Assembly (NCBI GenBank): GCA_964428965.1
Contig: CAYSAF010000001.1
Location: forward strand, 11,242-75,241
Direction: 5' to 3'
DNA from: Candidatus Woesearchaeota archaeon
GTDB lineage: Archaea > Nanobdellota > Nanobdellia > SCGC-AAA011-G17 > VGLX01
DNA: 64,000 nt
Shown: positions 12,757 through 43,171 of the stretch, piece by piece
How positions within the stretch are numbered: position 1 is the first letter of the stretch
Layout: each line of letters starts with the position of its first letter
Made by a program: the position numbers and the translations under genes
Notes under the pieces: model-generated
The model's database searches: none
What the model was told of the DNA's origin: nothing
What the model saw: the letters and a program-made list of their open reading frames with translations, nothing else

Positions 12757-14127
12757 ATGAATTACAGGGGTATACTAACATATGGGATAGCGGGGCTGAT
12801 ATTCTTAGGAAGCTATACAATGCCTATTATAGCGAGAGCTCAAACAGCCACCAGCTCCGTAAAACAAGAATTCTTTGACACGATAGTTGATTATGCAAGA
12901 AAGCAGGGACTAAATCTTAATAAAATAGAAGAAAAAAACATAGAAATAAAAAGCGAAGTCAAGAGAAAAGATAAAGAAGGAAACTATGAAAAAGTGATGG
13001 GGCTTTTTGACAGACAAACAAGAAAGATACAGATAGAAAGATCAAGCCTCGAAAACATAGCAACGATAGGCATACACGAGATTACACACGATAAACTGTA
13101 TGATGTTGAAGAATCTGAATTGTGGTTTAAAAAAATACACTACAAAGTACAAAAACAAGACGACATATACATAGCGACAGTGAAAGAAGAGCAAGCGAGT
13201 TGGACAATCCCAAAAGAACTACAAAAACTAACTATAAAAGATGAAGGAATGAATAATGAAACCGTAATATACGACGCCAAAGGAAACATGCTAGTAAAAC
13301 TTCAGATGAATAGAATAGAAAGTAAAGATGACTTGACAGTGAGGGAGAAAGGAGCAAACTACGAAATAAACGGCTTACAAGGGGAATGGCACTACGAAAA
13401 ATATGACAATAAGGAATATGAGAATATAAGACTTAGTTACAAACCTTCTGAGGAGATAATGGAATTCAACAATGAAGTAATAGCTAGGATATACGAGCAA
13501 GTATTCGGTGGTTACTACCATGGAAAAAACGTATACAAAATAACTACAGAAAAAGACAAAAGTATACTAGGAAAATCCCTTGCTTACCTAACCTCAACTT
13601 ACAGCCTAACACCTGAACAACAAAAAATATCAGAAAATTCCGAGGGGGCATACATCAGGCTAAACGAACACGGACTATTGAACCTCTTAGAAAAAATACT
13701 CCCAATAGGAGGAAAAACATTCAAAGAGGCTATGGAAGACGTCCAAGATGAACGATTCTCAAAGAGTTTGGCACTTGCATCTGTAATACTAACAGAACAG
13801 GACTTTATAACATTGCTCGATATGTACAACACAAAAGGCAAAGAAGGTGTAATACAACTGCTAAGCGAACAAATCCGAGAGCTTAAAAAAACAAAAAAGG
13901 TAGGAGCTCTTAATGAATATGAAATAATAAAAGAATACCTAAAAAGATTCAACTTGAACGATGAAGAAGCAGAATACGTCATGAGATACACAAAACATGC
14001 AAACTTTACAGACATGATAAAAAGTAAAGAAAAAATAAAGCACATAGAAAGGATAAAACAACAAAACCTAGAAAAATTGATGGAACCATTCAGACCACAA
14101 GAAAAAGAAATAACAAAAGGTTTATAA
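12757..14127 (+). CDS. Secreted protein with an HExxH motif (putative zinc metallopeptidase-like)
   Basis: 456 aa. N-terminal signal/TM segment (GILTYGIAGLIFLGSYTMPIIARAQTA). Contains IGIHEITHDKL (HExxH). Confidence 0.45.
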   Translation: MNYRGILTYGIAGLIFLGSYTMPIIARAQTATSSVKQEFFDTIVDYARKQGLNLNKIEEKNIEIKSEVKRKDKEGNYEKVMGLFDRQTRKIQIERSSLENIATIGIHEITHDKLYDVEESELWFKKIHYKVQKQDDIYIATVKEEQASWTIPKELQKLTIKDEGMNNETVIYDAKGNMLVKLQMNRIESKDDLTVREKGANYEINGLQGEWHYEKYDNKEYENIRLSYKPSEEIMEFNNEVIARIYEQVFGGYYHGKNVYKITTEKDKSILGKSLAYLTSTYSLTPEQQKISENSEGAYIRLNEHGLLNLLEKILPIGGKTFKEAMEDVQDERFSKSLALASVILTEQDFITLLDMYNTKGKEGVIQLLSEQIRELKKTKKVGALNEYEIIKEYLKRFNLNDEEAEYVMRYTKHANFTDMIKSKEKIKHIERIKQQNLEKLMEPFRPQEKEITKGL

Positions 14128-14574: not shown

Positions 14575-14727
14575 ATGGACAAAAAAATACTAAAAATTTA
14601 TAAAAGGCTGTTGAAAAAGTTCGGCAAGCAGGGATGGTGGCCGGTAACAGACGAGAAAAACGCTCAATTCGAAATAGAGATAGGAGCGATACTGACACAA
14701 TATATTAGTTTTACTTATTATTTTTAG
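14575..14727 (+). pseudogene. N-terminal fragment (first ~42 aa) of an endonuclease-III-related HhH-GPD gene (COG2231-like), interrupted by the integrated element
   Basis: MDKKILKIYKRLLKKFGKQGWWPVTDEKNAQFEIEIGAILTQ matches the N-terminus of the family. Compare the intact copy at 14724..15476 (LFEMYGSQGWWP...IGAVLAQN). The frame then runs into unrelated YISFTYYF* and stops. The missing NTSWKN...C-terminus lies at 28076..28618. Confidence 0.7.
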
Positions 14728-15476
14728 GATTCTAATATTTTGGCTTTCCTAATGTCAACCCTTCCTTTCTTACCTCCTGCTTTCACATATTTTTTATATA
14801 AAGGACAATTATGATATTCCCCTTTCTTTGCATAATACCTCTTGGCATGCTCTACTATAAGGGCATGATATTCCTGATAGGTTGTAAGGTCAGACTTTAA
14901 GTTGCCCTCAAACAAGGCTTTTATCTCATCATACTTTGCATCTTCCTTAATAAAGCCCAGATTTGCAAATATCCTCTTTGTGTAGGCATCCACAACAAAA
15001 GTAGGGGTCTTAAAGGCATATAACAGCATAGAATCCGCAGTTTCGGGTCCAATACCCCATATATTCAATAATTCTTCCCTTTTGGGTATATAGGTAAGGG
15101 TTAGGAAAAACCTTGTAAACTCCTTTAATTTCCTTGCCTTCTGGTTGAAGTATCCAGCTGGCTTTATGGCTTCTTTAAGCTTATTGTTGTCTAATCCCAT
15201 GAGGGCTTCTGGGTTGAGGGCTTTTAATCCCTTAAGGTTGTTTAATGCCTTTTCTGCGTTCACCCATCCTACGTTTTGAGCGAGCACAGCACCAATGCAG
15301 ACCTCATAGATTTGGTTTGTTGTCTTAGGAAATTCATAATTTCCAGGATGATAACCACCATAATTCTTACTACCTTTCCTATAAGTCACTTCCCCCAAGT
15401 CCAGCAGAGGCCACCAACCCTGTGAACCATACATTTCAAATAAATCATCGTATACATCTTTAATGGTTTTAATCAT
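14724..15476 (-). CDS. Endonuclease-III-related HhH-GPD protein (COG2231-like), intact element-borne copy
   Basis: 250 aa. GSQGWWP, IGAVLAQNVGWVNAEKALNNLK, AGYFNQKARKLKEF, LLNIWGIGPETADSMLLYAF, VVDAYTKRIF and EYHALIVEHAK are colinear with the split host gene, with roughly 50% identity. Confidence 0.7.
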   Translation of the reverse strand: MIKTIKDVYDDLFEMYGSQGWWPLLDLGEVTYRKGSKNYGGYHPGNYEFPKTTNQIYEVCIGAVLAQNVGWVNAEKALNNLKGLKALNPEALMGLDNNKLKEAIKPAGYFNQKARKLKEFTRFFLTLTYIPKREELLNIWGIGPETADSMLLYAFKTPTFVVDAYTKRIFANLGFIKEDAKYDEIKALFEGNLKSDLTTYQEYHALIVEHAKRYYAKKGEYHNCPLYKKYVKAGGKKGRVDIRKAKILES

Positions 15477-16402
15477 ATTATTACCCCTCTAAATTTATTG
15501 AATCGTTTATAGCATTTAAAAATGTTAAATAAGTTTGGAAGACTTTCTTTTGATATTTCTTGATAAGTCCTTCCGGTAATTCCTTGAATAAACTTATCAC
15601 TTACATCAAAACCTATGTCCCATAATTCACCATTTTTTACCTCTTCAATAAACTCTTTGATGATGGTATTTAATGTAAAGGATTTGTCATTTGACATAAC
15701 TCTCCAGAAAAAATAAGTGTTTAAAATTCTTTTAATATCCCTTACTTCGTCCTCTGAAAATAGCCATCTTCCTTTCAATAAGGCATCATTCTCTTTTTTG
15801 AAAGAATTTAACTTTGAACTTAACTCTTTATATTTTTGTATAGATAAGTGCATCCCTTTAATTTTCTCTTCTATGTCTTTTATCTCTGCTAAATTATGTG
15901 GTTTATCAATAAAATCTTCTTTTAACATATCATATGTTTTCTTTGGCTTACTCTGTTCTTTAGCTTTTTCTAGTATTAACTTATAGGCTTTGATTCTTTT
16001 TTCAATAAGCTTAATTCTTTGACTAAAAAAAGAACACATTAAATCTATTTTTTGGTTGATTTCCTTTACTTGTTCCTTAAAGATTAATTCAATCCTTTCA
16101 TATAGTTTATCATAATTAAGGTCAAATTTATATCCTTCACCAGACCTCCTATTAATTTTGTCCTTGTTGCTTACCAGGACTATTCTCTCCTTTTCTAAGA
16201 GATTCCTATATTTATTGTATGTTCCTTGTGAGATAAACCCTTGTTGTTCATCTTTAAGTTCTATTAAGGATGGTTTTTTATTACTATTCTTAACAATTAA
16301 TTCAGTAGTATCACATCCTACCCCAATTGTGGCAACAATCATTGCTACACTTGGAAGTTCCCAAAGGGATTTATTTTTAATTATACTATTTTTGCTATTC
16401 AT
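15473..16402 (-). CDS. Hypothetical protein (element). Coiled-coil rich.
   Basis: 309 aa. 4-nt overlap with the downstream endoIII-like gene suggests an operon. K/E-rich helical middle region. Confidence 0.45.
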   Translation of the reverse strand: MNSKNSIIKNKSLWELPSVAMIVATIGVGCDTTELIVKNSNKKPSLIELKDEQQGFISQGTYNKYRNLLEKERIVLVSNKDKINRRSGEGYKFDLNYDKLYERIELIFKEQVKEINQKIDLMCSFFSQRIKLIEKRIKAYKLILEKAKEQSKPKKTYDMLKEDFIDKPHNLAEIKDIEEKIKGMHLSIQKYKELSSKLNSFKKENDALLKGRWLFSEDEVRDIKRILNTYFFWRVMSNDKSFTLNTIIKEFIEEVKNGELWDIGFDVSDKFIQGITGRTYQEISKESLPNLFNIFKCYKRFNKFRGVII

Positions 16403-16472
16403 ATAATTAAATAATTATATATCCTATATATACTTTTTGGTTTTATGTCTCATTAACCGATTTCTAAGATAG

Positions 16473-16497
16473 TTTAGTTATATGTTTTTTAACTAAA
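16473..16497. promoter_or_regulatory. Inverted repeat (TTTAGTTA-n9-TAACTAAA) in the divergent promoter region, candidate RHH operator
   Basis: Perfect 8-bp arms. Lies about 35 nt upstream of the RHH ORF, between divergent gene sets. Confidence 0.3.
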
Positions 16498-16528
16498 ATA
16501 TTATTAATACCCTAATAATTATATTATT

Positions 16529-16681
16529 ATGGAAAAATTATTCACAATGAAGATGGACGATGAGCTTTACACTAAGCTTCGGAAGATTGCCTTTAAAAGA
16601 AATGTTTCAATGGGGTTATTCATAAGGAACGCCCTAAACCAAGAAATTAGGAGATTAAATCAAAATGAGCAAAATGTTTGA
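16529..16681 (+). CDS. Ribbon-helix-helix (CopG/Arc/MetJ-like) DNA-binding protein
   Basis: 50 aa (below the ORF-track cutoff). MEKLFTMKMDDELYTKLRKIAFKRNVSMGLFIRNALNQEIRRL is a classic beta-strand + two-helix RHH pattern. Confidence 0.5.
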   Translation: MEKLFTMKMDDELYTKLRKIAFKRNVSMGLFIRNALNQEIRRLNQNEQNV

Positions 16682-16875
16682 TTTGTTAAATCCATTGACA
16701 AAATATCTTGTCAATCGAGCAATGCAGGATAACCTAATTGCAAATGCAGAAGAATTATCAAAAGTGTCAAAAATGTTTAAGGATAATAAAAGGGAGGATG
16801 GTTTAGCTGTTACAAGCTCTCAGAGTTAAGCTGTTAGGAAGTTTCTAAAATTATAGGCCGTTAGGAGGTAGGCAG

Positions 16876-17067
16876 ATGGAGGATTGCTTTAAATTTGAGG
16901 ATTTTATTTGTTACCTGAATGATGATAATTCTAAGGTAACCGCATATGTAGATATTATTTACACGAATTCTTCGGTAATTAAATTTGTCACTAAAGAAGG
17001 CAATTTGATTACATTACCTTGGCATAGAGTTCTTAAAGTAAAGCAGAGGGGTGGTAATGATGAGTGA
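16876..17067 (+). CDS. Small hypothetical protein (element)
   Basis: 63 aa. Overlaps the primase-helicase start by 17 nt. Confidence 0.3.
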   Translation: MEDCFKFEDFICYLNDDNSKVTAYVDIIYTNSSVIKFVTKEGNLITLPWHRVLKVKQRGGNDE

Positions 17068-18313
17068 GTTGACACCCTTTGATGTAGCAAAACAAATAAT
17101 GGAAGAGAATATTTTTCTAACATTAGAAAAAACTGAAGAGATTTACATTTATAAAAATGGGGTTTATTGCAAACAAGGTGATACTTCGATTAAAAAAAGA
17201 GTGCAGGAAATATGGGGGGATAAAGCAACTACACATAAAGTAAATGAGGTAATTAATCATATCAAAAGAATGACCCTAAGAGATGTTGAGGATGACGCTG
17301 TACCCATTAGTTTGATTTGTGTGGAGAATGGTATCTTGAATATATATACGCGTGAATTAAAACCACATAGCCCAGATGTTATATTTTTCAATAAACTGCC
17401 TATAAAGTATAATCCTGATGCTAAATATACAAAGTTCAAATGTTTTATAGAAGACTTGGTATCAAAAAATGATGCTGAAACATTACAGGAGTTTATAGGA
17501 TATTGTTTACGAAGAGACACAGCTTACCAGAAAGCGTTAATGTTGTATGGTAAGGGGAACAATGGTAAATCCACACTCACTAAGATTTTGGAAGGGTTTT
17601 TGGGAAAACACAATTATACATCAATACCCCTTCAGCAATTAGAAGAAGATAAATTTATAGTAGCAAATCTACATGAAAAAATGGTTAATATATCCGCAGA
17701 TTTGCCAAATAGGATATTATATGAGACTTCAATAACAAAGGCACTAATTACAGGTGATAGTATTACTGCCCAACGTAAATTTGGTCATCCATTTAGTTTC
17801 GTCCCATATACCAAACTTATTTTTAGTTGTAATAGACTTCCAGAGACTAAAGATTTGAGTAGCGGTTGGTTTAGAAGATGGATTATTATAAGTTTTCATA
17901 ATACTTTCAGAGAAAATGCTCAATCAAATAAAGAATTAGAATTTATGAATGAGGAAGATATGTCAAGCGTATTGAATTGGGCATTAGATGGCTTAGACCG
18001 TTTAAGACAAACTGATGGTTTTCTAATAAGTGAGCGTGAAACAAGAGAAATATGGATGAAACATAGTGATAATGTGTCTGCGTTTATTCAGGATAATATA
18101 GTGAAGGATGTAAATTCACACCTAATAAAAGAGGAACTTTATGATAAGTATACCTCTTTTTGTGAAAAACAAGGAAGTGTTCCTTTAGAGAGTAATGCCT
18201 TCCATAGGAAATTGAAAGAGAAGATGGATGTTATTGATTATCAACCATCTGTAGATGGTAAGCAAGTACATGCATGGAAAGGTATTAATTTTAAAGATAC
18301 TCCACCATGGTAG
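17051..18313 (+). CDS. D5/P4-type primase C-terminal SF3 helicase-domain replication protein
   Basis: 420 aa. Walker A LMLYGKGNNGKST. Walker B/motif C region KMVNISADLP...LITGDSITAQRKFGHPFSFVPYTKLIFSCNRLP, and WFRRWIIISF. This is typical of phage/plasmid primase P4-family (COG3378-like) proteins. Confidence 0.7.
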   Translation: MVMMSELTPFDVAKQIMEENIFLTLEKTEEIYIYKNGVYCKQGDTSIKKRVQEIWGDKATTHKVNEVINHIKRMTLRDVEDDAVPISLICVENGILNIYTRELKPHSPDVIFFNKLPIKYNPDAKYTKFKCFIEDLVSKNDAETLQEFIGYCLRRDTAYQKALMLYGKGNNGKSTLTKILEGFLGKHNYTSIPLQQLEEDKFIVANLHEKMVNISADLPNRILYETSITKALITGDSITAQRKFGHPFSFVPYTKLIFSCNRLPETKDLSSGWFRRWIIISFHNTFRENAQSNKELEFMNEEDMSSVLNWALDGLDRLRQTDGFLISERETREIWMKHSDNVSAFIQDNIVKDVNSHLIKEELYDKYTSFCEKQGSVPLESNAFHRKLKEKMDVIDYQPSVDGKQVHAWKGINFKDTPPW

Positions 18314-18319
18314 CTCAAA

Positions 18320-18346
18320 TAATTAGGAATTAGGATAATTAGGATT
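18320..18346. repeat. Three tandem copies of (A)ATTAGGA immediately downstream of the replication gene, candidate iterons
   Basis: aattaggaattaggataattagga within an AT-rich intergenic spacer. Confidence 0.3.
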
Positions 18347-18388
18347 TTATTATATTTAAGTTAAATAAAATATATTATAAATTAAATT

Positions 18389-18988
18389 ATGGAAAAACCC
18401 AATTATCCTCATTGTAGAATGAAAATGGAAACAAACCATGACGCAAACCAAGAAAAAACATGCAAGAAATCTCTTGAATATAAAAAAAATGTAGGGAGGT
18501 TCTCAAGGTTGACCCAGGAAGAGTTAAGCCGAATAGCAAGAAAAGGTGGTCAAGCAAGGTCAGAACGAAAGAGGCTGTCATCTCAATTAAATCCCATAAA
18601 ATCGGGCAACGCAACATCGGTATTCAATATTGCAAAGTGTGATGACTGCTTAATTAAGGTTGATTGTGATTTCTATAGGCAAGGCTCAGCCTGCCAAGTT
18701 GAGATTAATATCAGAAGGAACATAATCAGGCAATTCAAGGCATTCCAGGGCGATAATCCAAAAGACATGCTTATAGAGATTATGAGGGTTTATAAAAAGC
18801 TTGAGCAGATGGTAGAAGAAGACAAATCTTTCTATAAATATACACAATTATTCCATATGCTTCTGCATCTTTATAGGATGAAGTTTTGTGAGGGGCATTT
18901 TGATAAAAAGATTCTGGAAGATGGGCTTAATATTTCTTTAGAGGTCAAGCGGATTATGAAAGAGCTACGGGGGAGTGCCAAAAAATAA
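18389..18988 (+). CDS. Hypothetical protein (element)
   Basis: 199 aa. Basic N-terminal region (ARKGGQARSERKR). No clear domain. Confidence 0.4.
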   Translation: MEKPNYPHCRMKMETNHDANQEKTCKKSLEYKKNVGRFSRLTQEELSRIARKGGQARSERKRLSSQLNPIKSGNATSVFNIAKCDDCLIKVDCDFYRQGSACQVEINIRRNIIRQFKAFQGDNPKDMLIEIMRVYKKLEQMVEEDKSFYKYTQLFHMLLHLYRMKFCEGHFDKKILEDGLNISLEVKRIMKELRGSAKK

Positions 18989-19050
18989 TGAACCGTAGGT
19001 AAATAATCCTGCTATATGGGTGCTTCAAAAAAAATGTAATTTAAGACACC

Positions 19051-19332
19051 TTAATCCTTTTTAATTTCTGACAATATTTTGTTTGCCTGCTGTAAGACTT
19101 TCTTGCCTTCTGAAGTTAATTTATAAAACTTATAGTTCCTGTCGTCTGGATTGACACATTTGATTAACTTTTTTCTCAGCAACTCATTCAAAACCCTGCT
19201 TACATGGGACCTGTACATTCCAGTTTGCTTTTCAATCTGGGCAGAGATTTTCTGACCTTCCTGTAAAACCCGAAGTATACCTAAACGATTTTTTGCTCTT
19301 AATACATAGGAGACTACATTCTGTTTACCCAT
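19051..19332 (-). CDS. Winged-helix transcriptional regulator (ArsR/MarR-like)
   Basis: 93 aa. RLGILRVLQEGQKISAQIEKQTGMYRSHVSRVLNELLRKKLI matches a recognition-helix + wing pattern. Confidence 0.6.
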   Translation of the reverse strand: MGKQNVVSYVLRAKNRLGILRVLQEGQKISAQIEKQTGMYRSHVSRVLNELLRKKLIKCVNPDDRNYKFYKLTSEGKKVLQQANKILSEIKKD

Positions 19333-19422
19333 GAGTTACCATACACATACCATAATTAAAACAAAGTATTACCAAATGAGTTACCAAAAATATTAAATAC
19401 GACAACATATTATATAGATATA

Positions 19423-19833
19423 ATGGAGAAGAAAAAGGCGGTTTGGATAGGAGTATTAGGATTCTTAACCTTTGTATTCCTTCTGATAGTTATATTTGGA
19501 GATAGTCCGGAAGAAGCGGCAGAAAAACAAAGACTTCTCACAGAGCAAGCACAAAGAGAAGATGCTATAAGAGCTGAACAAAAAGCCAACCAATGCCCAA
19601 AGCAAGGCATATTACAATCTGATTGGGATTATTGTGTTGAGTTGTGTGTGTTAGGAAAGAGTGATGCTTTGATTAACGAAGAACAATGTGAAAAAATCTG
19701 TGATACAACTGAGTATTACCAAGGTAGTGAGGGTTTGCAGAAAAGAATTATGAATTATAAATGTAAAAAGTGTGGAGAATGCACAGAGGAACAATTAAAA
19801 GAAATGAATGTAAGTAATGAGGTAGAAGAATGA
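19423..19833 (+). CDS. Cys-rich membrane-anchored or secreted protein (element)
   Basis: 136 aa. N-terminal TM (VWIGVLGFLTFVFLLIVIF). 10 Cys in the C-terminal half. Confidence 0.4.
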   Translation: MEKKKAVWIGVLGFLTFVFLLIVIFGDSPEEAAEKQRLLTEQAQREDAIRAEQKANQCPKQGILQSDWDYCVELCVLGKSDALINEEQCEKICDTTEYYQGSEGLQKRIMNYKCKKCGECTEEQLKEMNVSNEVEE

Positions 19834-20432
19834 ATATACGATTTATCATAGGGATAATTATAATTCTAATCCTAATTGACATAGTAACCGCTATGGTTTG
19901 TAAAACTGATTATGAAGATAAAGATTATCTCAAATGTCTTGAATGGAGAAAAGAAAGGATTAAAGAATGTGAAGATGACCCAGACTGTGCAGGTATTTGT
20001 GACGAGTTAGAAGATGGAAATTATAGTTCATGCCTAGTAATATCTGAATGTAATCCGCCCCAAAAATGTCAAAGTGAGTTTGGAGAAGGAGAGCCTCCGG
20101 TTGAACAACAACCTATATGTAGTACATGCCCTCCGGCTTGTAAGCTAAAAGACCCAAATGATACCTGTGGCGAATGCATATGTCCAGAAAATCATGGTTT
20201 TTGCACCCATGAAGTAGGAGTGAGGAAAATTATCAATAACACATCTATCTATTGCATTGATGGATTATGGCTACAACAAAAAGAAGATAACCAAACCTGC
20301 CAGAATAGCTTTGAATGTATTAGCAATTTTTGCAGTAAAGACTTTTGCTATGATATTTCTAAACAAGTTGAAGAAAATAAATCTCTATTGAACAGCATTC
20401 TTGATTGGATAAAAAAATTCTTTAGGATATGA
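19830..20432 (+). CDS. Cys-rich secreted protein (element)
   Basis: 200 aa. N-terminal hydrophobic segment, about 30 Cys. 4-nt overlap with the previous ORF. Confidence 0.45.
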   Translation: MNIRFIIGIIIILILIDIVTAMVCKTDYEDKDYLKCLEWRKERIKECEDDPDCAGICDELEDGNYSSCLVISECNPPQKCQSEFGEGEPPVEQQPICSTCPPACKLKDPNDTCGECICPENHGFCTHEVGVRKIINNTSIYCIDGLWLQQKEDNQTCQNSFECISNFCSKDFCYDISKQVEENKSLLNSILDWIKKFFRI

Positions 20433-20567
20433 TATCTAAATACCAAATTAAATCATCCCGATTTTTCGGAATCATTTCCCATTTAAAACCGGTAATTCTT
20501 ATTAAAAGGGTAATATAATTTCATTGAATTACTATAACATTTATACCCAGAGGGGAGCCAATCAGGG

Positions 20568-21161
20568 GTGGACATGAAAAAGTTTAAATATCTCTATAAC
20601 TACTTAAAAATGATGAAATACACGCTAATTATGGGATTGGTTTTGACTGTTGTTTTAGTTAGTGGATGTGGTAATACCACAGGCGAGACAACAAAAGAGA
20701 TAACTAAATACGTATGCCCTGATGGCAGGACAGTTCTTGACAGTTCGTCATGCTTAAAATTAGACTGTTCAACCTGCCCTGTGAAGATGGAAACAAAAAC
20801 AGTTAAAGAACCTATTTATGTCTGCCCTGATTTGACCGAAGTTAAAGATAAGAAAGACTGTATTAATGCTGATTCAGAAGGATGGTATGATGTGATTACT
20901 TTGCATGGAAGTGGACAAACTACCACACAAAAATTCCATATAACAGGTAATGAATGGAGATATTCAGTTAAATGTGACCTTTCAACTGCAGGTTACAATA
21001 TTGTTATTTACGATAAAAACTCAAAGCATATAACAATGAACTTGATGGTCCCTTGCAACGACCAATTTGAGGAATATTCTTATGTTTATCAAGGTGATAA
21101 TGATTTTTATTTTGACATTTATGCAACAAATTGGGAAGTAAAAGTAAAGGCTAAAAAATAG
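20568..21161 (+). CDS. Putative lipoprotein (lipobox LVSGC), Cys-rich
   Basis: 197 aa. MMKYTLIMGLVLTVVLVSGCGNTT is a signal peptide with an L-V-S-G-C lipobox. The mature part has repeated CPDG/CPDL motifs. Confidence 0.45.
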   Translation: MDMKKFKYLYNYLKMMKYTLIMGLVLTVVLVSGCGNTTGETTKEITKYVCPDGRTVLDSSSCLKLDCSTCPVKMETKTVKEPIYVCPDLTEVKDKKDCINADSEGWYDVITLHGSGQTTTQKFHITGNEWRYSVKCDLSTAGYNIVIYDKNSKHITMNLMVPCNDQFEEYSYVYQGDNDFYFDIYATNWEVKVKAKK

Positions 21162-21355
21162 AAAGCTAAGGATTTCTCCTTAGCATCATGTTCTATCAGA
21201 GCGTCAGCTCCTTAAATTTAAAAAGAGTGATAAAGAAATAGACTTTTTTAACAAACACTACTTATTTAACAAAGCTGTTTTAAAAACGACAAGTTAAAAA
21301 ACATAAAGTAACCTCTTTTTATGGAAGATGGGGGAAGTAGGTTATAGGAGGGTAT

Positions 21356-21988
21356 ATGGTCTATGCAATTAGAATTCATATTATGAATTATACATATAGT
21401 TATTATGGTGGTTTTGTGGCAGGAATATTAATAGCCTTTGCTCTTGGACAGAATCCTATCAAACATAATTTAGTTAACTTATTATTCTTTATGATTTTTA
21501 CATATCTTTTTGGTTTGGTTTGTGTATCGTTTATTTATTGGTGTTTAAAGCCTTATGAACACAATGAAACTGTACCTTTGAGTAAAAAAAGGAAGACTTA
21601 TAAGTTAAGAGGGATTATGGTATACATAAAGGGGTTGTATCTTATGAACGAATTTGATAAAAGATTATTCACTGCTTTGAAGTTTTTTGCAGATAATACT
21701 AACGTTACGATACTAAATATAAGACAAGAAAATATGGACTGGTATAGAAGACAAGTTCCAACAGATATGGAAGAATATCTCAGTAGAATGGATTATATTT
21801 CACTAAACAGAATGAGGTATATCCCTCCAGCGGGAACTGGTCAAGGTCAACGTATAATAACTTATGCAGGGCTTACTGAGTTAAGAAAGTTGGAAGAAAT
21901 AAGATATAGAGACAGAGTGGTTATTATAGCTTTAATAGCATTATTACTGTCTCTGTATACTTTTGCAAAAACACAGGGGTGGATTTAA
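21356..21988 (+). CDS. Membrane protein (element), 3-4 TM
   Basis: 210 aa with hydrophobic helices at the N- and C-termini. Confidence 0.4.
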   Translation: MVYAIRIHIMNYTYSYYGGFVAGILIAFALGQNPIKHNLVNLLFFMIFTYLFGLVCVSFIYWCLKPYEHNETVPLSKKRKTYKLRGIMVYIKGLYLMNEFDKRLFTALKFFADNTNVTILNIRQENMDWYRRQVPTDMEEYLSRMDYISLNRMRYIPPAGTGQGQRIITYAGLTELRKLEEIRYRDRVVIIALIALLLSLYTFAKTQGWI

Positions 21989-22282
21989 ATGGGTATAAGA
22001 GAAGATGCTGGAAAGATATTATTGTTTGTATATAAAAAGTATATAAATGAAGAATATTATTTAAATACTGAAAGTATAATAAAAGGGACTAAATTACCAG
22101 CTAAAAGAATAAATAGTGCTATCACCTATCTAAAAGATATTGGTGCTATCCAAATTACATTATTCTTTGGGAAGACAGATGGTGTTTATAATTTCGAGAT
22201 TGATGGTTTAACGCCTAGAGGGATTGATATTGTAGAGAACAAAAAGAAGTTTAAGAGTATTTTTGGAATACGAGAAGGGTAA
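21989..22282 (+). CDS. Hypothetical protein (element)
   Basis: 97 aa. Its start abuts the previous stop. Confidence 0.35.
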   Translation: MGIREDAGKILLFVYKKYINEEYYLNTESIIKGTKLPAKRINSAITYLKDIGAIQITLFFGKTDGVYNFEIDGLTPRGIDIVENKKKFKSIFGIREG

Positions 22283-22428
22283 GGGGGTTTAAAAATACAA
22301 AAACCATGTCTATTGTATACTGTTTGTATTTGGTAATTCATACATCTAATCAAAACTCACTAAGCTTCCCCTGTCCTTTAGCCTTCTTATGATTCCGCCA
22401 AGTCATCTAAGACTTACGGAGAGATAAA

Positions 22429-22923
22429 ATGCCGCCAAGATGGATACATGATGCTATGGATATAATTTGGTGTGCTAGAAGTTATTGGGAAATACACAAA
22501 GAAAAAGATGCACCCTCACAGATTTTGGGTTATAAACATAGGAAGGTAAAACATGAATATTACCAAAAGTTTAAGGATGTTGAAGAATTTATTGAAAATT
22601 TATCAAATCTAGATATAAAGACTGAAGAAGAAGGGGTAAAAGTTACACATGATTTATTAGATAAAATGTGGGACAGCTCATCTAAAGAGGAAAGAGAGTG
22701 GCTTGCTGGCTTTTTCCTTTTTATTATTTTAAATCCAGATGTTCTTTGGGAATGGGCAGGAGTTAATCCAAAAAAAGGCATATCTAAATTTTATGACCCA
22801 AAAGAAAAGAAGATAAAAATTGAACATAATACTCAGCTTAAAAAAGATTATCTGCAATTAAGGGCTTATGTAGAAAATAAAACAGTTGAAGAGTTATTAT
22901 ATATGCCCCCTAAAAACTTATAA
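22429..22923 (+). CDS. Hypothetical protein (element)
   Basis: 164 aa. No motif recognised. Confidence 0.4.
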   Translation: MPPRWIHDAMDIIWCARSYWEIHKEKDAPSQILGYKHRKVKHEYYQKFKDVEEFIENLSNLDIKTEEEGVKVTHDLLDKMWDSSSKEEREWLAGFFLFIILNPDVLWEWAGVNPKKGISKFYDPKEKKIKIEHNTQLKKDYLQLRAYVENKTVEELLYMPPKNL

Positions 22924-22950
22924 ATTTATTTGCATTCTAATGCTATCCTT

Positions 22951-24333
22951 TTAACTGTAACTACCTTGCAAAACTAGATTATTATTAGCATCTCTTAAAT
23001 AAAATGTATCGCCATCATTATTCCAGACAGCCGAAGTGCTTCCCCAATATAATTTTTCTGCTGTATTAGTGCCAGAACCAGTATAAAGGGTTACACTAGT
23101 TTGTGGATAAAGGTTAAATGTTGGGAATGTATAAACATGATTTGCTAAGTCACTTATAGTCCAAGAAATCATATCTACAGGAAAACTACATGTGTTCTTT
23201 AAAGTAACATACTCGTCGTTTAAGTTATAATTATCGTTTCCATAAGCATCATAATGAAAATTTGAGATAACAAAACAATCAGAATAATCTTCTTTAGCTC
23301 TTTTCCATAAACAACCAGTAGCATCTTGTTTTGCTTCTGCCTCTGCTTGCTTCATTTGAGTTTCATATTTCACATTTGGACTAATAATCCAAACAGTGGC
23401 TAAACCCTCCCTAACTAATGCTAGATTAACAAATGTATCACCAACATAAATATACCTTAACAATCTATCATATCTATCTTTATCCTCAACATCTTTTTCA
23501 AGAGTTACCTCTTTATTTAACACCAACTGCCCTAAACTATCTTTTGCTTCTTGATAACATGGTTGTCCACTTTCAGCTGAGTTTATTTCAAGTAATCTAA
23601 CTTTTTCTCCCGTGTTCAATTCAATTGTATCACCATCTATAACTCTTGTAACAATATAACCTGAACAATCTGGGCAATCTTTACACTCATTTGTTGCACA
23701 AATATTGTCATCTTTACAGCCACATCCAACCCCTGCACTCCCACCACTATTAGATGCATTTTCTGGTTCTGGATTGCATTTTCCTTCTGAACAGCCATAT
23801 GGACACTTGTAGTATTCTGAATCCAATTTAGAATTTTTACAGTAATACTCAATTAGATAATTTTCATATCCTACATTAGTATCGCACTCATCATATACTT
23901 TGCCTTTAACACTATAATATATGTATCCTTTAGTATGATAATCCTTTCCGTTATCTGTATCTTCACAAGGTTTACATTTTGCGTTTTCACATCCATAAGA
24001 ACATAACTCATTAAAAACCCAGCTAAAGCTACAATTTGAATGTTGATATTTCCTTTGAATATTATTTCCATCACATCTATACTCATCTAAGTATCCTACT
24101 TCACAAGTTTTCTTTTCTTCTTGTCCTATTTGTATTTGTTCCTTTTGTCTTTGAATTTCTGCTTGTTTAGATTTATCTTGATTAGCAATAGTATCGTTAT
24201 CAACTAAACTTCTAGAAGCAAGAGAGTTATTATTCTGCTTTACTACATGACCAGTTGGTCTTAAGCTAATACTGATAAATAAAATAGTTAAGATTACTAG
24301 ACAAGTAATCAAATATTTTATATTCCTTTTCAT
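22951..24333 (-). CDS. Secreted nuclease: Cys-rich N-terminal region + staphylococcal-nuclease-like (SNase) domain + C-terminal lamin-tail domain
   Basis: 460 aa. Signal/TM LITCLVILTILFISISL. SNase-like core GYIVTRVIDGDTIELNTGEKVRLLEINSAE...DRYDRLLRYIYV. The C-terminus NDEYVTLKNTCSFPVDMISWTISDLANHVYTFPTFNLYPQTSVTLYTGSGTNT...VWNNDGDTFYLRDANNNLV matches the LTD pattern. Confidence 0.6.
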   Translation of the reverse strand: MKRNIKYLITCLVILTILFISISLRPTGHVVKQNNNSLASRSLVDNDTIANQDKSKQAEIQRQKEQIQIGQEEKKTCEVGYLDEYRCDGNNIQRKYQHSNCSFSWVFNELCSYGCENAKCKPCEDTDNGKDYHTKGYIYYSVKGKVYDECDTNVGYENYLIEYYCKNSKLDSEYYKCPYGCSEGKCNPEPENASNSGGSAGVGCGCKDDNICATNECKDCPDCSGYIVTRVIDGDTIELNTGEKVRLLEINSAESGQPCYQEAKDSLGQLVLNKEVTLEKDVEDKDRYDRLLRYIYVGDTFVNLALVREGLATVWIISPNVKYETQMKQAEAEAKQDATGCLWKRAKEDYSDCFVISNFHYDAYGNDNYNLNDEYVTLKNTCSFPVDMISWTISDLANHVYTFPTFNLYPQTSVTLYTGSGTNTAEKLYWGSTSAVWNNDGDTFYLRDANNNLVLQGSYS

Positions 24334-24422
24334 CTTTCCTTTAGTTAATTATGTTACAATATAACACAGCCCCTGCTTTTTAAAGATTATGGCTTAAATA
24401 AGCAAAATTAATTAATACTTCT

Positions 24423-25211
24423 TTATTCTAATTTAATTGGACTACTCTGAATTAGTTTTATATCAACTGTTGGTTCACCAAAGCCACTAAGAATAAAGTT
24501 TGTAGCCTCTGTATCTGATGGGATTTCAAAGGCTAATTCTCCTGTTATATGTTCTCTTGGTAGAATTGATGAGTAAAAGCTAATTCTATCAAATTCGTAT
24601 TTATTTTTCTCACCTTCACTAACTTCTTTATAACCACAACCATATAAATCAGCTTCTTCATAAATATACCCTTTATCAACTTTCAACTCTTCTTTGTAGT
24701 AATCTAAATTGTCTTGTTTTATTCCATTATTTGTGATTGTTAAGGTTAAGATAACAAATTTATAATTTGATTTTGGTTGACATATATAACAGTTAGTAAT
24801 TTCTGTATATTCACTATAATAACAATCTCTTATAATCTTACTATCATCTTTAACAGAAGTAACTACCAAAGAGAAATTTCCAATATTTACGGCTTGATTT
24901 ATTGTGCCGTTGATAATTTCTGGATTTTCTATCTCCTGTGTGATTTTCTCTAAGCTTTTAGTTGTAGTAATAAACACAAATAAAACAGATAAAATAATTA
25001 CTGCAATAACAATTAATATAATTCCGAGTATTTTTGGTGTTGTTCCTTTCTGGCAGATTAGAAAAATTGCAATAGCAAGACCTAAAATTTCTACTAATAA
25101 AGTAGCTACTGAAATTCCCAGCAGAGTTAAAAATAGCCCAACTACAAATAAGACTACAACAATCCAAGTCTTCAGTCCTTTTCTTTCTCCTTTGATTTTG
25201 TTCCTACTCAT
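24423..25211 (-). CDS. Membrane protein with 3 N-terminal TM helices and an extracellular beta-rich domain
   Basis: 262 aa. KTWIVVVLFVVGLFLTLLGISVATLLVEILGLAIAIFLI...ILGIILIVIAVIILSVLFVFI. Confidence 0.45.
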   Translation of the reverse strand: MSRNKIKGERKGLKTWIVVVLFVVGLFLTLLGISVATLLVEILGLAIAIFLICQKGTTPKILGIILIVIAVIILSVLFVFITTTKSLEKITQEIENPEIINGTINQAVNIGNFSLVVTSVKDDSKIIRDCYYSEYTEITNCYICQPKSNYKFVILTLTITNNGIKQDNLDYYKEELKVDKGYIYEEADLYGCGYKEVSEGEKNKYEFDRISFYSSILPREHITGELAFEIPSDTEATNFILSGFGEPTVDIKLIQSSPIKLE

Positions 25212-25421
25212 GATTAATTAGTGAGGGGGTGTTCCTTTATAAATGTCTTGTGCCATGTTGTTTCTTTAACCCTATTGCTTATAATTAGATTTGTTAGCAA
25301 AAGTCAAAATACTTATACGTACCCTCTTGGGATAAGCCCACCCCGTGCCTTAAAATATGTGAACAGACGTTTAAAATAGGGTTATGGTACTGTCTCAAAA
25401 AAAGGGTTGCTTTTTTGCCTA

Positions 25422-25895
25422 TCACTCCTTACTTTTATCGTTTGTTTCCTCCTCATAGGTGTCCTCCCTATCATCCACTTCCGAATTATCATCCAAACCG
25501 ACTTCTTTGTTAAACTGTTTTCTCAAATTATCGACTTTTCTGAGATTAAGTTCCTCAATAGCCTTGAATTTGTCAGGATGATAATGTCGCCTGTTATTAT
25601 CTGATTCTATTCCTTCTTCAAAGTGTGATACTTCATGAACTATTGTGTACCATGCATGACCCGTAAGTTCATCTTTGGAATATAATTTTTCATCAAATGT
25701 TATGGATGATTTAGGATTTTTTTTCCATCTTGCGTAATCTTTCATACTGAATGGTGCCAGTCCTTCATCCCTGAATATTCCTCTACGAGTATGATGTGTG
25801 TCTCTGAAGAAAACATACACATCTACATCATACAATCTTCGCATTACTTTCTTGGTATACTTAACCATTATCTTTTGTTTATCCATATTCTTCAC
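25422..25895 (-). CDS. Putative HExxH metallopeptidase-like protein
   Basis: 157 aa. GHAWYTIVHEVSHFEEG contains HEVSH. Confidence 0.35.
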   Translation of the reverse strand: MKNMDKQKIMVKYTKKVMRRLYDVDVYVFFRDTHHTRRGIFRDEGLAPFSMKDYARWKKNPKSSITFDEKLYSKDELTGHAWYTIVHEVSHFEEGIESDNNRRHYHPDKFKAIEELNLRKVDNLRKQFNKEVGLDDNSEVDDREDTYEEETNDKSKE

Positions 25896-26216
25896 CTATT
25901 GGGGGATGGGGGCCCTAAATGGCACACACCCGTTTTCAATGTTCGAGCTATTGTACTGTTTCAAAAAAAAAGGAAAAAAGTAACTGGTTTATTGAAATCA
26001 ATCAATTAATGCAGTTACTTAGTTAGTGGATATTTTTTCCTCCAGGGAGGGCGGAAATCCACTTCTACCTTTCCATACTTTTTTTCATATTCCTCACATT
26101 CTTTAACAAATTCGTCCCACTTACTCCAATCTTCTATTGTGGGGTATGGTGGTTTTTTCTCATTATTTGTTCTATCCATTTTATTACCTCCTGTTTTTAT
26201 TTTACAAAATGTATAA

Positions 26217-28013
26217 TCAATCCGGGGCTGACAAATCCATAAGTTCTTTTAGCTTCGCTATGAGATGGGGGTCTGATTTTAACACTTGGTACATTGCTTC
26301 CTTTATATCCCCACTATAGGGGGCTGTACTAATGTTCTTGTTGAATAGCTCCCTTTGTAGCTCATCTTCTTTCTGCTTAATCTTTGTTAATGATACTGCT
26401 GTCTTTAGCGTTAGTGGATAGCCACATTTAAGGCAGAATTTTGCTTCTGAAGGGTTTCCATAATTACATAGCGTGTTTGGGCATATACCAATCTCCAACA
26501 AACAATCTTTTTCTTCCTTTTCTTTTGGCTTTAACCCATAGTTTTCTAAAATCTTGTTGGCTACATCCTTCTCGTCTAAGTGCACGTAGACCGAAGCCAT
26601 ATTTGATTCTTCACCCCACCCAGCATGGATTTTAAGCTCTGATTCTGATAGAATCCTTGCCATTCTTGTAAGGTTTGTATGCCTGAACAGGTGCGCATGT
26701 ATGTGCCTTGTTACTCCTGCCTTCCTTGCGGCCCTTTGTAGAATCTTGTTAATGCCTACCGGTGTAAGCCTCTGACCATACCTGCTTTCTTTTGTTGAGA
26801 CAAAAAGAGGGGCTTCTGGGTCTTCCTTAATAGGATGGTTTAGTAGCCATAGCCTCAGATGAGGCACTGAATAGAAAAGCTGGTTTGTCCTTTCGCCGGT
26901 CTTGCCTCTTAGGACAATAGTTGCTATGGAATGGCTGTATTCAGCCCCTTCAAGCGAAATCTCGTTTATCCTGAGGTCTTTAATATTGGTATTTATGATT
27001 TCCCCTACCCTTGCAGAGCAGTCAGCTATAAGCCCAATTAAAGCCTTATCCCTTGTCTCACCACAGCAGTCTATCATTGCCTTAATCTCCTTGTCAGAGA
27101 GAATCTGCTTTCTAAGCTTATCGTGGCTTTTCTTTCTTTTTTGGTATAGCCATGACACAACAGGTGGGTATGTTCTTGGCTGTTCTTCCCCAAAGAATCC
27201 ATATACAAACCTGTAGAAGTCAAGCAGGTGTGCCTTATATGAGATATTTATCTTGACCTTTTCATCTGCTTCTCTCTTTGAGCTGATAGACCTTGCTACC
27301 TCACTTAAGAAGCCTTGGATATCCTCCATTTTGGCTTCTTTGAATGTTTTGTTTATCTCTTTCAAGTACAGCCCGAGCCTCTTAAGGAAATAGAGTTTGC
27401 TTACAAATCCTGTGTAAGATTCAACCTTACCGCTAGCAATCTTATAGTCTAGGTAGTCATTAAGCGTTTTAAGGTTATCCCTATCCAGAATCAGATGAGG
27501 GTATTTAGACCTTAGCTCCTCTTTGGATAGACTCCTATCTGCTTTCCTGTTAGTTGTTATAATCTCATTATTAAGTAATGCCATAACCCTTTGTTTACAA
27601 AGGAATTCCCTTGATTTCTCAGGCTTTTTTATCACCTTAGGCTTAGGATATGCCAATTCGGAATTAACGCTTAAATCCGTGTATTTCATTATCCAGCGGT
27701 AGAATAAGTTAACCCTATACCTATAGCCCATTACCGATGACTTCTTTACCTTCAAGACCCGGTTGTTTGTAATTGTTTCATTGCTTTCCCTCTTAAAGTT
27801 GAGGTAGTGTTCTAAATCCTCAGGGGCGGCATCCTCATATGGATTCTTTATAAACAGCCCGAATTCCCTTATGGTATATGCCATGCCCAAGATTTGGGCA
27901 TCTGTCTTAAAGACCTTCAGGTGCTTTATCCACATTGCTATTACCTCTTCTTGATGCTCGGTTAGCCTTTCATCCCTGAGCAACAAGCCCAATTTTTGGC
28001 TGTCTGTTCTCAT
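26217..28013 (-). CDS. Tyrosine recombinase (site-specific integrase) with a zinc ribbon in its C-terminal region
   Basis: 598 aa. Catalytic-domain residues in order: ADCSARVGEI (R), LRGKTGERT (K), HAHLFRHTNLTRMA (HxxR), HAGWGE (W), ASVYVHLDEKD (Y). A CPNTLCNYGNPSEAKFCLKCGYPL ribbon follows the Tyr region. The gene is intact and adjacent to the right junction. Confidence 0.8.
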   Translation of the reverse strand: MRTDSQKLGLLLRDERLTEHQEEVIAMWIKHLKVFKTDAQILGMAYTIREFGLFIKNPYEDAAPEDLEHYLNFKRESNETITNNRVLKVKKSSVMGYRYRVNLFYRWIMKYTDLSVNSELAYPKPKVIKKPEKSREFLCKQRVMALLNNEIITTNRKADRSLSKEELRSKYPHLILDRDNLKTLNDYLDYKIASGKVESYTGFVSKLYFLKRLGLYLKEINKTFKEAKMEDIQGFLSEVARSISSKREADEKVKINISYKAHLLDFYRFVYGFFGEEQPRTYPPVVSWLYQKRKKSHDKLRKQILSDKEIKAMIDCCGETRDKALIGLIADCSARVGEIINTNIKDLRINEISLEGAEYSHSIATIVLRGKTGERTNQLFYSVPHLRLWLLNHPIKEDPEAPLFVSTKESRYGQRLTPVGINKILQRAARKAGVTRHIHAHLFRHTNLTRMARILSESELKIHAGWGEESNMASVYVHLDEKDVANKILENYGLKPKEKEEKDCLLEIGICPNTLCNYGNPSEAKFCLKCGYPLTLKTAVSLTKIKQKEDELQRELFNKNISTAPYSGDIKEAMYQVLKSDPHLIAKLKELMDLSAPD

Positions 28014-28075
28014 TTTCCTCCTTTTAGGAAGGGATTGGCATTATTTTAAGCCTGACTGCCTAACCATATAAGTAA

Positions 28076-28618
28076 TATATTGGAATCTTAAAAATAATAA
28101 TAAAAACTCAAATATTAACACAAAACACCTCATGGAAGAACGTGGAAAAAGCAATAAAAAACCTGAGAGAAAAAAACATTCTAACAAAACAAGCAATACT
28201 AACTACAGATACAAAAAAAATAGCACAACTCATAAGAAGTTCAGGATACCACAACCAAAAAGCGAGAAAGCTGAAAGAATTGGCCAAGTTCGATGGAGAA
28301 ATAAACAGGGAGAACCTACTAAGCATCTGGGGGATTGGAAAAGAAACAGCAGACTCCATACTCCTATACGCTTATGACAAACCACACTTCGTAATAGACA
28401 ACTACACCAAAAGAATATTTAACAGGATAGGTTATAAGGAAAAATCATACAAAGACCTGCAAAACCTTTTTGTGAGCAATTTGCCAAAAGACATAGGGGT
28501 ATACAAGGAGTATCACGCATTAATCGTGGAATTGGCTAAGAACAACTGTAAGAAGAAGCCAGAATGTGAAGGATGCGCCTTGAAAAGCATGTGCAGATTC
28601 AGAGACGATGTATCATAA
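28076..28618 (+). pseudogene. C-terminal fragment (~180 aa) of the endonuclease-III-related HhH-GPD gene split by the element
   Basis: The in-frame translation upstream of the annotated GTG reads ...ILTQNTSWKNVEKAIKNL, continuing exactly where the N-fragment stops. It contains GYHNQKARKLKEL, LSIWGIGKETADSILLYAY, VIDNYTKRIF and EYHALIVELAK, colinear with the intact family member. No proper start codon or RBS. Confidence 0.7.
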
Positions 28619-43085: not shown

Positions 43086-43171
43086 TGGGCCTGCCCGGAT
43101 TCGAACCGGGGACCTCCACCGTGTGAGGGTGGCGTTTGCTAGTTTCCTCATAGCCACTAGACTACAAGCCC
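43086..43171 (-). tRNA. tRNA-Val (anticodon CAC) with an atypically long D-arm region, possibly a non-canonical intron
   Basis: Reverse complement: GGGCTTG-TA-[30 nt D region]-CCACC-CTCACAC-GGTGG-AGGTC-CCCGG-TTCGAAT-CCGGG-CAGGCCC-A. The acceptor stem (one G-U pair), anticodon and T arms are canonical. The D region is about 13 nt longer than standard. Confidence 0.6.

Follow-up and report, generated by a model that had tools for sequence, protein, structure and literature searches.

Prophages and genomic islands that rebuild the gene they enter out of a piece carried at attP are classically known from tRNA and tmRNA genes and from icd-type cases. Restoration of a target from an attP-borne fragment has been stated in general terms for integrative genetic elements (IGEs), and gene-replacement IGEs have been described as well, e.g. 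a tmRNA-encoding island in the tmRNA gene of Rhodobacter and the hrpB islands (Mageeney et al. 2020; PMC7192596). In archaea, integrated mobile genetic elements (iMGEs) are found in tRNA genes, in intergenic sites and at the 3'-distal ends of protein genes, attachment (att) sites down to 8 bp have been reported, and iMGEs with pNOB8-type integration are known from Thaumarchaeota (Krupovic et al. 2019; PMC6563490). Here we describe an element of 13,423 bp (14701-28123, one copy of a shared hexamer counted) that interrupts a gene for an HhH-GPD/COG2231 DNA glycosylase and that very probably entered the chromosome of a DPANN archaeon (Woesearchaeota/Nanoarchaeota) by recombination between attP and attB. 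It lies in a 64,000-nt stretch of contig CAYSAF010000001.1, referred to as the window, whose positions are used throughout.

The glycosylase gene of the host is present as two fragments on the plus strand. The 5' fragment (14575-14700; codons 1-42, positions 1-47 of the profile hidden Markov model) ends with GAILTQ, and the open reading frame (ORF) to which it belongs (14575-14727; MDKK...EIEIGAILTQ) continues through eight unrelated element codons, YISFTYYF, into a stop at 14725-14727. The 3' fragment (28124-28618; codons 43-206 plus stop) has lost its start codon and promoter; the frame is open from 28076 (...KTQILTQNTSWKNVEKAIKNL...) to the stop at 28616-28618, and a public source annotates a 158-aa ORF that begins with a GTG at 28142 (P0001). 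Joining 14575-14700 to 28124-28618 yields a 206-aa ORF without frameshift or stop. Its product is recognised by Pfam HhH-GPD (E 4.5e-18), and none of the invariant columns is lost when it is aligned with nine full-length homologues and the element's own copy. A database search with the joined protein returned thousands of full-length homologues, the best uninterrupted ones of which (P0002-P0006, ~203 aa) show 69-72% identity over 97-98% of the query, and the alignment is gapless across the junction, through the near-invariant block GAILTQNTSW. The split falls at about position 7 of the 108 positions of the HhH-GPD profile, with nearly the whole domain residing on the startless, promoterless fragment. 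An earlier reading of this DNA, made from the letters alone (the sequence-only reading), had proposed that the two ORF fragments rebuild one COG2231-type protein and that the left one runs from GAILTQ into junk and a stop, and both proposals agree with our reconstruction.

An empty site is found in L001, a related organism of a different species from the host of the window. There, an intact 203-aa glycosylase gene stands in the order lspA, intact gene, PUA-domain gene, GluRS, L7Ae, S28e, L24e and NDK, which matches the flanks of the window, the flanking proteins being 76-88% identical. The GC content drops from ~0.37-0.42 in the flanks to 0.28-0.35 across 15-26 kb, i.e. over most of the element. 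A reconstructable target together with an uninterrupted allele at the same locus of a relative identifies the insert as an integrative element; since the core repeat alone is too short, it is the uninterrupted homologues, the syntenic empty site and the GC drop that demonstrate the insertion. The integrative element of about 13.4 kb in a COG2231 gene, as postulated in the sequence-only reading, is thereby confirmed, and the uninterrupted allele that it had suggested looking for in related genomes exists. The named relatives of the glycosylase and of the integrase described below are metagenome-assembled genomes (MAGs) of Candidatus Woesearchaeota, Nanoarchaeota or Nanoarchaeia, and the host is for this reason assigned to the DPANN archaea. 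As the contig (~102 kb) was itself assembled from a metagenome and a short shared sequence is found at each junction, one might suspect that a chromosome and an extrachromosomal element were wrongly joined at these shared sequences. However, two independent chimeric joins at the same codon would then have to leave an exactly reconstructable gene, and both junction types recur in independent assemblies from other samples, which renders such an artefact so improbable that we consider it negligible.

The attL core ATACTGACACAA occupies 14689-14700, with the crossover hexamer ACACAA, as inferred, at 14695-14700; the attR core ATATTAACACAA occupies 28112-28123, with ACACAA at 28118-28123. Both cores match at 10 of 12 positions, ACACAA being the only exact part and both mismatches being synonymous (CTG/TTA, Leu). 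At attL the hexamer is preceded by the attB-type base G and followed by the element-type TATAT, and attR shows the converse. Because the flanks of the hexamer are swapped between attL and attR, both exchanges should have taken place within or at the edges of ACACAA. No long direct repeat exists at the junctions beyond the 12-bp region. The ends of the element are formed by two inverted arms, namely the integrase-distal (D) arm of attP at 14699-14741 (84%; conserved in L013) and, at 28074-28116, the core-proximal part of the integrase-proximal (P') arm, which continues to a conserved TTACTTATATGGTT motif and the integrase promoter region at 28014-28073. Exactly these two ends are paired by the longest inverted repeat in the region, with 36 of 43 positions matching; when the 64-kb window was scanned with the left arm, the next-best match reached 26/43 and the shuffle maximum was 27.

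When the ends are joined via one ACACAA, a palindrome with the 5-nt centre AACAC is obtained, and the reconstructed attP folds as a single long hairpin with AACAC as the loop (z = -8.1). This corresponds to the layout of a simple tyrosine-recombinase site, in which two inverted arms surround a short asymmetric spacer. In L013, whose integrase is 62% identical, a contiguous stretch can be aligned with the reconstructed attP over its full length, including the distal arm, the core and the proximal arm, and reaches the integrase start. The sequence-only reading had described a 12-bp near-identical direct repeat encoding ILTQ and had taken it as the signature of attL and attR. Site-specific integration and the 10/12 match encoding ILTQ both stand, but only the 6 bp of ACACAA are exact, the arms are partly similar, and such a repeat proves nothing alone; attL and attR are better seen as the halves of a putative dyad-symmetric, Xer/Cre-like attP with 43-nt inverted arms. 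Like XerA-dif, XerH-difH and Cre-loxP, whose recombinases are the best matches of the integrase among solved sequences and folds, such a site has inverted arms around an asymmetric, orientation-setting spacer of 5-8 bp; unlike in those systems, the integrase belongs to a mobile element, the arms measure ~43 nt compared to 11-13 nt, and the partners attP and attB differ. The contiguous stretch in L013 (L013:3646-3830) immediately precedes the integrase and represents a complete attP-like site, made up of distal arm, TTGAGTTG and proximal arm; it lies ~60-130 nt inside the junction with the host C-fragment, which suggests a tandem integration of which the first copy was almost wholly deleted.

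Terminal inverted repeats of 43 nt and an exact flanking duplication of 6 bp also make up the classic signature of a transposon, cut-and-paste or self-synthesising, which a transposase would have moved into a target duplicated as ACACAA. Yet both features are equally expected for a dyad-symmetric attP, and domain and profile searches of the 19 element ORFs revealed no transposase (DDE, HUH), no Cas1 and no other recombinase. Moreover, the inverted arms are contiguous, with a spacer, in L013, as expected of attP, the arm is always linked to the integrase gene, and about a dozen distinct loci use the same codons with similar flanking bases, which speaks for sequence-specific recombination and not for a duplication. 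We thus regard transposition as very unlikely.

The integrase gene (26217-28013, minus strand; 598 aa) is intact and starts 98 bp from the right core, in line with the tyrosine recombinase that had been placed about 100 bp inside the right junction. The protein matches PF00589 with 51.3 bits against a cut-off of 27.1 (residues 305-481) and also matches PHROG integrase families. All catalytic residues are present: R335, K371, H441, R444, W466 and Y476 align with the XerA motifs and are invariant among 23 aligned family members, as are the cysteines of a C-terminal Cys4 zinc ribbon (C511, C516, C527, C530). An AlphaFold model (mean pLDDT 78) comprises two N-terminal helical domains (~1-125 and 135-270) that are SAM/core-binding-like, followed by the catalytic domain, the ribbon and a helical tail. 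Archaeal XerA structures (5hxy, 4a8e) are the best matches among solved sequences, and XerA, XerH, IntI and Cre are the best folds. XerA is an archaeal chromosome-dimer resolvase of ~280-300 aa in a chromosomal housekeeping context; by contrast, the present integrase has 598 residues and is encoded in a low-GC insert beside an att site. Of the families considered, PF00589 thus applies, and XerA itself was rejected (NCBIfam NF040815, 76.6 bits against a cut-off of 220). In SSV-type (type I) integrases attP lies inside the integrase gene, which is split upon integration. This type was likewise rejected, the ORF at 26217-28013 being intact and the core being located 98 bp upstream of the start codon. 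In keeping an undivided integrase gene after integration, the element agrees with the pNOB8 type (type II).

The resemblance to pNOB8-type iMGEs extends to an unsplit integrase gene beside one att site with short att identity, to a replication gene of the D5/P4 or primase-helicase kind and to a cryptic cargo mix. In contrast to those elements, the target comprises codons 39-42 of 206, inside the catalytic domain, and the integrase, which has an additional helical domain in its N-terminal part and a zinc ribbon near its C-terminus, is of roughly double length. The sequence-only reading had called integration into a protein-coding DNA-repair gene instead of a tRNA gene uncommon; integration into protein genes is documented in archaea, there typically in 3'-distal regions (PMC6563490). 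The nearest named matches of the integrase, at ~33% identity, are labelled only XerA, XerD or integrase. Among viruses, the nearest integrases belong to archaeal pleomorphic and tailed viruses, with 24-35% identity over 39-64% of the query (C-terminal); ThalV2, Geoglobus acetivorans pleomorphic virus 1 and Halorubrum tailed viruses encode the closest relatives of the catalytic half, but their integrases are devoid of the N-terminal 160-240 residues, and the element of the window is devoid of recognisable virion genes. SNJ2-type (pleolipovirus) integrases come with the accessory proteins Orf2 and Orf3 and target tRNA-Met; the integrase of the window is only 28-29% similar to those of other pleomorphic viruses, and its target is a protein gene. 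A scan of IMG/VR with the integrase profile gave a single relative of 30% identity and no close relative.

The strongest support for site-specific integration comes from relatives of the integrase. About 30 full-length homologues (45-69% identical, 566-631 aa) are found in Woesearchaeota/Nanoarchaeota metagenomes and MAGs, and genome and metagenome scans together with look-ups provided ~20 integrase loci. At 14 loci besides the window (~11 distinct ones) a COG2231 fragment is broken at the same I-L-T-Q codons and joined to the integrase-proximal arm; most loci with a readable junction use these codons, in either orientation. In the same-strand layout (L005, L006/L016, L014, L015, L020, L021/L025, L022, L023, L069 and L070), a COG2231 N-fragment ending in ...ILTQ (CAA or CAG), the conserved arm (TATAT...TTAGTTATTAGTT...TTACTTATATGGTT) and the integrase follow each other on one strand. 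In the reverse layout, found in L013, L068 and the window, the reverse complement of the C-fragment from ILTQN onwards adjoins the arm, such that between both orientations the spacer is inverted and the arms are kept. In a neighbour-joining tree computed without bootstrap, the three loci of the window orientation share a clade with L015. The proposal of the sequence-only reading, that the element integrated site-specifically through the neighbouring tyrosine recombinase, is therefore supported by the reconstructed gene, the empty site, the catalytic residues and the recurrent ILTQ target; the family with its recurrent target, the 43-nt inverted repeat and a second complete HhH-GPD gene (see below) had been overlooked there.

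Two members of the family were found in other genes. In L007 (45% identity) the site is a core-like ATACTGAC within a truncated gene for a TctA transporter, and this TctA site ATGATACTGACTGG (L007:9010-9915) resembles the attB core of the window. The distant member L017 (9207-9887) is located at the 3' end of a gene for an OB-fold protein; this gene terminates in KLKILE and the stop, which resemble the KAKILES tail with stop in the left arm of the window. An identification of this gene upstream of the L017 integrase as MCM proved wrong: it encodes an OB-fold protein (tRNA_anti-codon and RMI2 matches below the Pfam cut-offs) with a C-terminal tail that, by reading of the sequence only, is RPA2-like. 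Further observations concern repeated use of the site: L022 carries two N-terminal fragments (5231-5284 and 9728-9895) upstream of one integrase, and a displaced fragment in L005 (1467-1637) resembles an element-type N-module, which suggests serial or nested integrations at the same codons. Cargo varies widely among family members; L070 (6413-13655) carries a UvrD-type helicase, MmeI/Eco57I-type restriction-modification genes and a T5orf172 protein, which are defence-like, and L068 (11932-14133) a 733-aa protein with a weak match to the exonuclease of family-B polymerases.

We envisage integration as follows. In a free circle the ends of the element would be joined as attP, with ~43-nt inverted arms around a short asymmetric spacer (...CTCAAATATT-AACAC-AATATATTAG...). 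The Xer/Cre-like integrase of 598 aa would then recombine attP with attB (GCGATACTG-ACACAA-AACACC), i.e. with codons 39-42 (I-L-T-Q) of the short, Fe-S-type HhH-GPD gene of the host, ACACAA lying in codons 41-42 and both strand exchanges occurring there or at its edges. The predicted products are an attL composed of host N-fragment, ACACAA and distal arm, and an attR composed of integrase-proximal arm, ACACAA and host C-fragment, and the host gene would be left cut inside the HhH-GPD domain and unrestored. That the element's own integrase catalysed this reaction appears highly probable from the genes and sites at hand.

Beside the distal arm the element encodes a complete HhH-GPD/COG2231 paralogue of 250 aa (14724-15476, minus strand), which is 42% identical to the split host gene and whose last five codons and stop (KILES and the stop codon) lie inside the left arm. 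It is of a long type, in which the WWP motif is followed by an insert of 25 aa, and has one cysteine instead of the C-X6-C-X2-C-X5-C Fe-S motif of the host enzyme. All 52 invariant residues of the subfamily are kept, and among the best matches, which are 66-72% identical and have the same long, Fe-S-less traits, are ordinary genes of chromosomes (L072) as well as Methanococcus proteins that carry the annotation 3-methyladenine glycosylase III. A 309-aa ORF without assigned function (15473-16402, minus strand) overlaps the start of the paralogue by 4 nt in an operon-like manner, and its homologues precede a glycosylase module in L004 and L006. The target is thus disrupted inside its conserved domain and not restored, and a homologue is encoded by the element, so that the element looks like a gene replacement that would knock out one glycosylase gene and deliver another. 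The long-type, Fe-S-less, MagIII-like paralogue, co-oriented with its upstream ORF, would be the most likely substitute, and on balance we lean towards the view that it compensates for the lost host function. As in gene-replacement IGEs, an element with a tyrosine integrase cuts a conserved gene within the domain, leaves it unrestored and encodes a different copy; the present case differs by its archaeal (DPANN) host, by a base-excision-repair glycosylase as the target with a paralogue of an Fe-S-less subfamily as the copy, and by sister elements that repair the target via an in-frame 5' module.

At the position equivalent to attB the paralogue carries GTGCTCGCTCAAAAC (codons 64-68; 15273-15287, minus strand). 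Its hexamer, GCTCAA, differs from ACACAA, so that the integrase of the element should spare the paralogue, although the L022 junction does use GCTCAA. A DNA comparison of the paralogue with a chromosomal COG2231 gene beside lspA in L071 (5350-6075; P0243) gave ~92% identity over ~108 nt (codons ~20-55) and ~70% thereafter, the step ~25 nt upstream of the att core amounting to mosaicism between element and chromosomal glycosylases. This step was rejected as a crossover mark of the integrase, the breakpoint lying ~25 nt upstream of the core and homologous exchange being as likely.

In the other orientation, the damage to the target is made good in frame. At the far end of L004 a homologue of the 309-aa ORF is followed by a 277-aa ORF and then by the host PUA gene. 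This 277-aa ORF consists of an element module (M..IY..YG.QGWWPIINNK.LLCEYH..APKNE.ERFEI..GAILAQNTQWYPNVVRAIQQLK), a linker, the translated distal arm NNKLITKGK and the host part from ILTQNTAW onwards. P0020 (269 aa) and P0065 (307 aa) share this architecture of module plus host part. The module also starts a gene at the end of L006, where the displaced host N-fragment differs from the element module, which identifies the one as host-derived and the other as element-derived. P0020 lies in L073 between a 4.6-kb remnant without integrase and PUA plus GluRS, i.e. at the same host locus as in the window. The fused gene was seen in L004, L006 (partly), L073 and L074, the far ends of most same-strand loci lying beyond the 10-kb flanks. 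Since these elements, too, have distal arms that repeat the proximal-arm consensus in inverted form, dyad symmetry of attP is a trait of the family. A simple inversion of this orientation was rejected as the origin of the arrangement in the window given that a copy of the proximal arm is present at each end and that the glycosylase of the element is of full length and only 42% identical to the C-part of the host. In the same contig L004 (1-492), the conserved arm is cut short upstream of the integrase, and an ORF running into the integrase start recalls an outer-membrane beta-barrel protein of bacteria (...AAGFGYTLF...), perhaps through a rearrangement or because the contig end is chimeric.

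Similar to prophages that regenerate their target, the sister elements L004, L006, L073 and L074 carry a gene fragment beside attP, and integration recreates an ORF. Unlike those prophages, they store the 5' end with its own start, as a conserved but non-identical module that duplicates the ILxQN helix, and they yield chimeric proteins of 269-307 aa and not a faithful copy; the element of the window does neither. The two orientations bear on a further explanation, namely a regulated gene-integrity switch, in which conditional excision would restore the Fe-S-type glycosylase and thereby toggle the repair enzyme, as for the elements in Streptococcus mutL or Listeria comK. In the window the target is indeed cut inside the Pfam domain and unrestored while both fragments are intact, the same arrangement recurs in L013 and L068, and the concept, including the nuance of gene replacement, is documented for bacteria (PMC7192596). 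On the other hand, the full paralogue on the element removes the obvious phenotype of a switch, and most family members integrate in the gene-repairing orientation, which indicates that the family avoids rather than exploits inactivation. We thus consider a switch unlikely.

Several points weigh against an active element that integrates by its own integrase. Exact identity between the junctions amounts to only 6 bp, which is short for many characterised archaeal integrases, and the hexamer lies ~1.5 bp off the centre of the palindrome, leaving the exact cleavage positions uncertain. Neither a recombination directionality factor nor an excisionase was identified among the element ORFs. The paralogue is of a different subfamily than the host enzyme, and its substrate range may differ. 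Finally, no copy of the integrase with at least 90% identity was found in the homologue search (best homologue 69%), and the element could be a fixed island that is no longer mobile. In such a fossil the element would have integrated as described, the paralogue would now be the working glycosylase and the host fragments would be decaying pseudogenes. Besides the distant integrase homologues and the lack of an identified excisionase, decay among relatives points in this direction, L073 being a remnant without integrase, L004 having lost its proximal arm, and L068 showing neither an inverted repeat nor an N-fragment at its far end within 10 kb. Against this, all 19 ORFs including the integrase are intact, the arms match at 36 of 43 positions, neither host fragment contains a frameshift or a stop or has lost an invariant residue, and the GC contrast is not ameliorated. 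A fossil is hence a possible, less probable alternative to a functional element, whose present-day mobility we judge to be an evenly balanced question.

The remaining cargo is consistent with an integrative plasmid or a provirus of unassigned type. A 420-aa D5/P4-type superfamily 3 (SF3) helicase (17051-18313, plus strand; D5_N, DUF5906, Pox_D5; TIGR01613, 205 bits), a ribbon-helix-helix (RHH; Arc/CopG-like) regulator of 50 aa (16529-16681, plus strand) and a winged-helix regulator of 93 aa (HVO_A0261_N; 19051-19332, minus strand), which is 66% identical to a gene in the L073 remnant, may serve episomal replication and its control. Three Cys-rich ORFs of 136, 200 and 197 aa with N-terminal hydrophobic segments (19423-21161, plus strand) follow, together with a secreted-looking protein of 460 aa that has a staphylococcal-nuclease (SNase) and a lamin-tail domain (22951-24333), a membrane-anchored DUF4352 protein of 262 aa (24423-25211) and a 157-aa ORF with an HEVSH (HExxH) motif (25422-25895), the last three on the minus strand. 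Compared to the assignments made in the sequence-only reading, the winged-helix protein and the secreted nuclease (SNase and lamin-tail domains) are substantiated, and the RHH is weakly supported, its Pfam score of 19.7 bits staying below the cut-off of 20.5 while PHROG gives an Arc-like match of 6e-6. The primase-helicase is substantiated as a D5/P4 helicase, but profile searches detected no archaeo-eukaryotic primase (AEP) domain in it; the metallopeptidase-like ORF does have its HEVSH motif, and the Cys-rich secreted proteins are recognisable by reading of the sequences, but neither has a family match. No PHROG match to a capsid, portal or terminase was credited among the element ORFs, the exceptions being an unreliable small-terminase match of 5e-4 (199-aa ORF) and a lamin-tail-domain match labelled 'tail'.

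Elsewhere in the window, a 456-aa ORF with a signal-like N-terminus and without family match (12757-14127, plus strand) lies between a conserved 163-aa gene and lspA and is absent from the syntenic L001, where, in turn, the glycosylase and PUA genes are separated by a gene with an SLT domain that is missing from the window. A tRNA gene as the target was rejected, the only tRNA genes of the window lying at 43-45 kb and at 62 kb. Two tRNA genes are Rfam matches without ARAGORN call (43086-43171, minus strand; 62492-62598, plus strand), and with lengths of 86 and 107 nt they are probably intron-containing archaeal tRNAs.

Tyrosine-integrase islands are well known, as are short att sites and protein-gene targets in archaea (PMC6563490) and target restoration and gene replacement (PMC7192596). 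New is a family of DPANN integrases of ~600 aa that possess a zinc ribbon and an N-terminal domain in duplicate, together with the conserved site that they target within the catalytic part of a repair glycosylase, a site used in both orientations and with two ways of making good the damage. The sequence-only reading had held that no such element was described for DPANN-type archaea. In the open-access full-text literature searched, which leaves most subscription journals outside, tyrosine recombinase, archaea, HhH-GPD and integration were not brought together in any paper, and none of the DPANN or Woesearchaeota papers listed there resembled, by title or abstract, a description of this integrase-element family.

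The mobile elements of DPANN archaea are poorly charted, and their hosts have tiny genomes with few repair genes. In the window, one such element is precisely delimited at both junctions, with predicted attP and attB. The integrase family and its conserved target provide a marker for integrated elements in Woesearchaeota and Nanoarchaeota genomes, and the integrase is a candidate site-specific integration tool for archaea without a genetic system. The locus also represents a natural experiment on the means by which an element offsets the cost of inserting into a repair gene, be it through mending of the 5' part in frame or through a full paralogue. Tentatively, one may go further and picture a DPANN-wide family specialised on the ILTQ block of COG2231 that always replaces what it breaks and, beyond using the gene as a landing site, re-programmes the base-excision repair of its host. 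One orientation would then, as a speculative possibility, place a chimeric glycosylase under the control of the element, and the other would combine a knockout with an Fe-S-less paralogue. If this were true, it could, e.g., protect modified or damaged DNA of the element from a glycosylase, and repeated recombination at the core would drive the mosaic evolution of glycosylases seen in L071. If the exchange of glycosylases were adaptive for the element, the choice of its integration site would be linked to the manipulation of host DNA repair.

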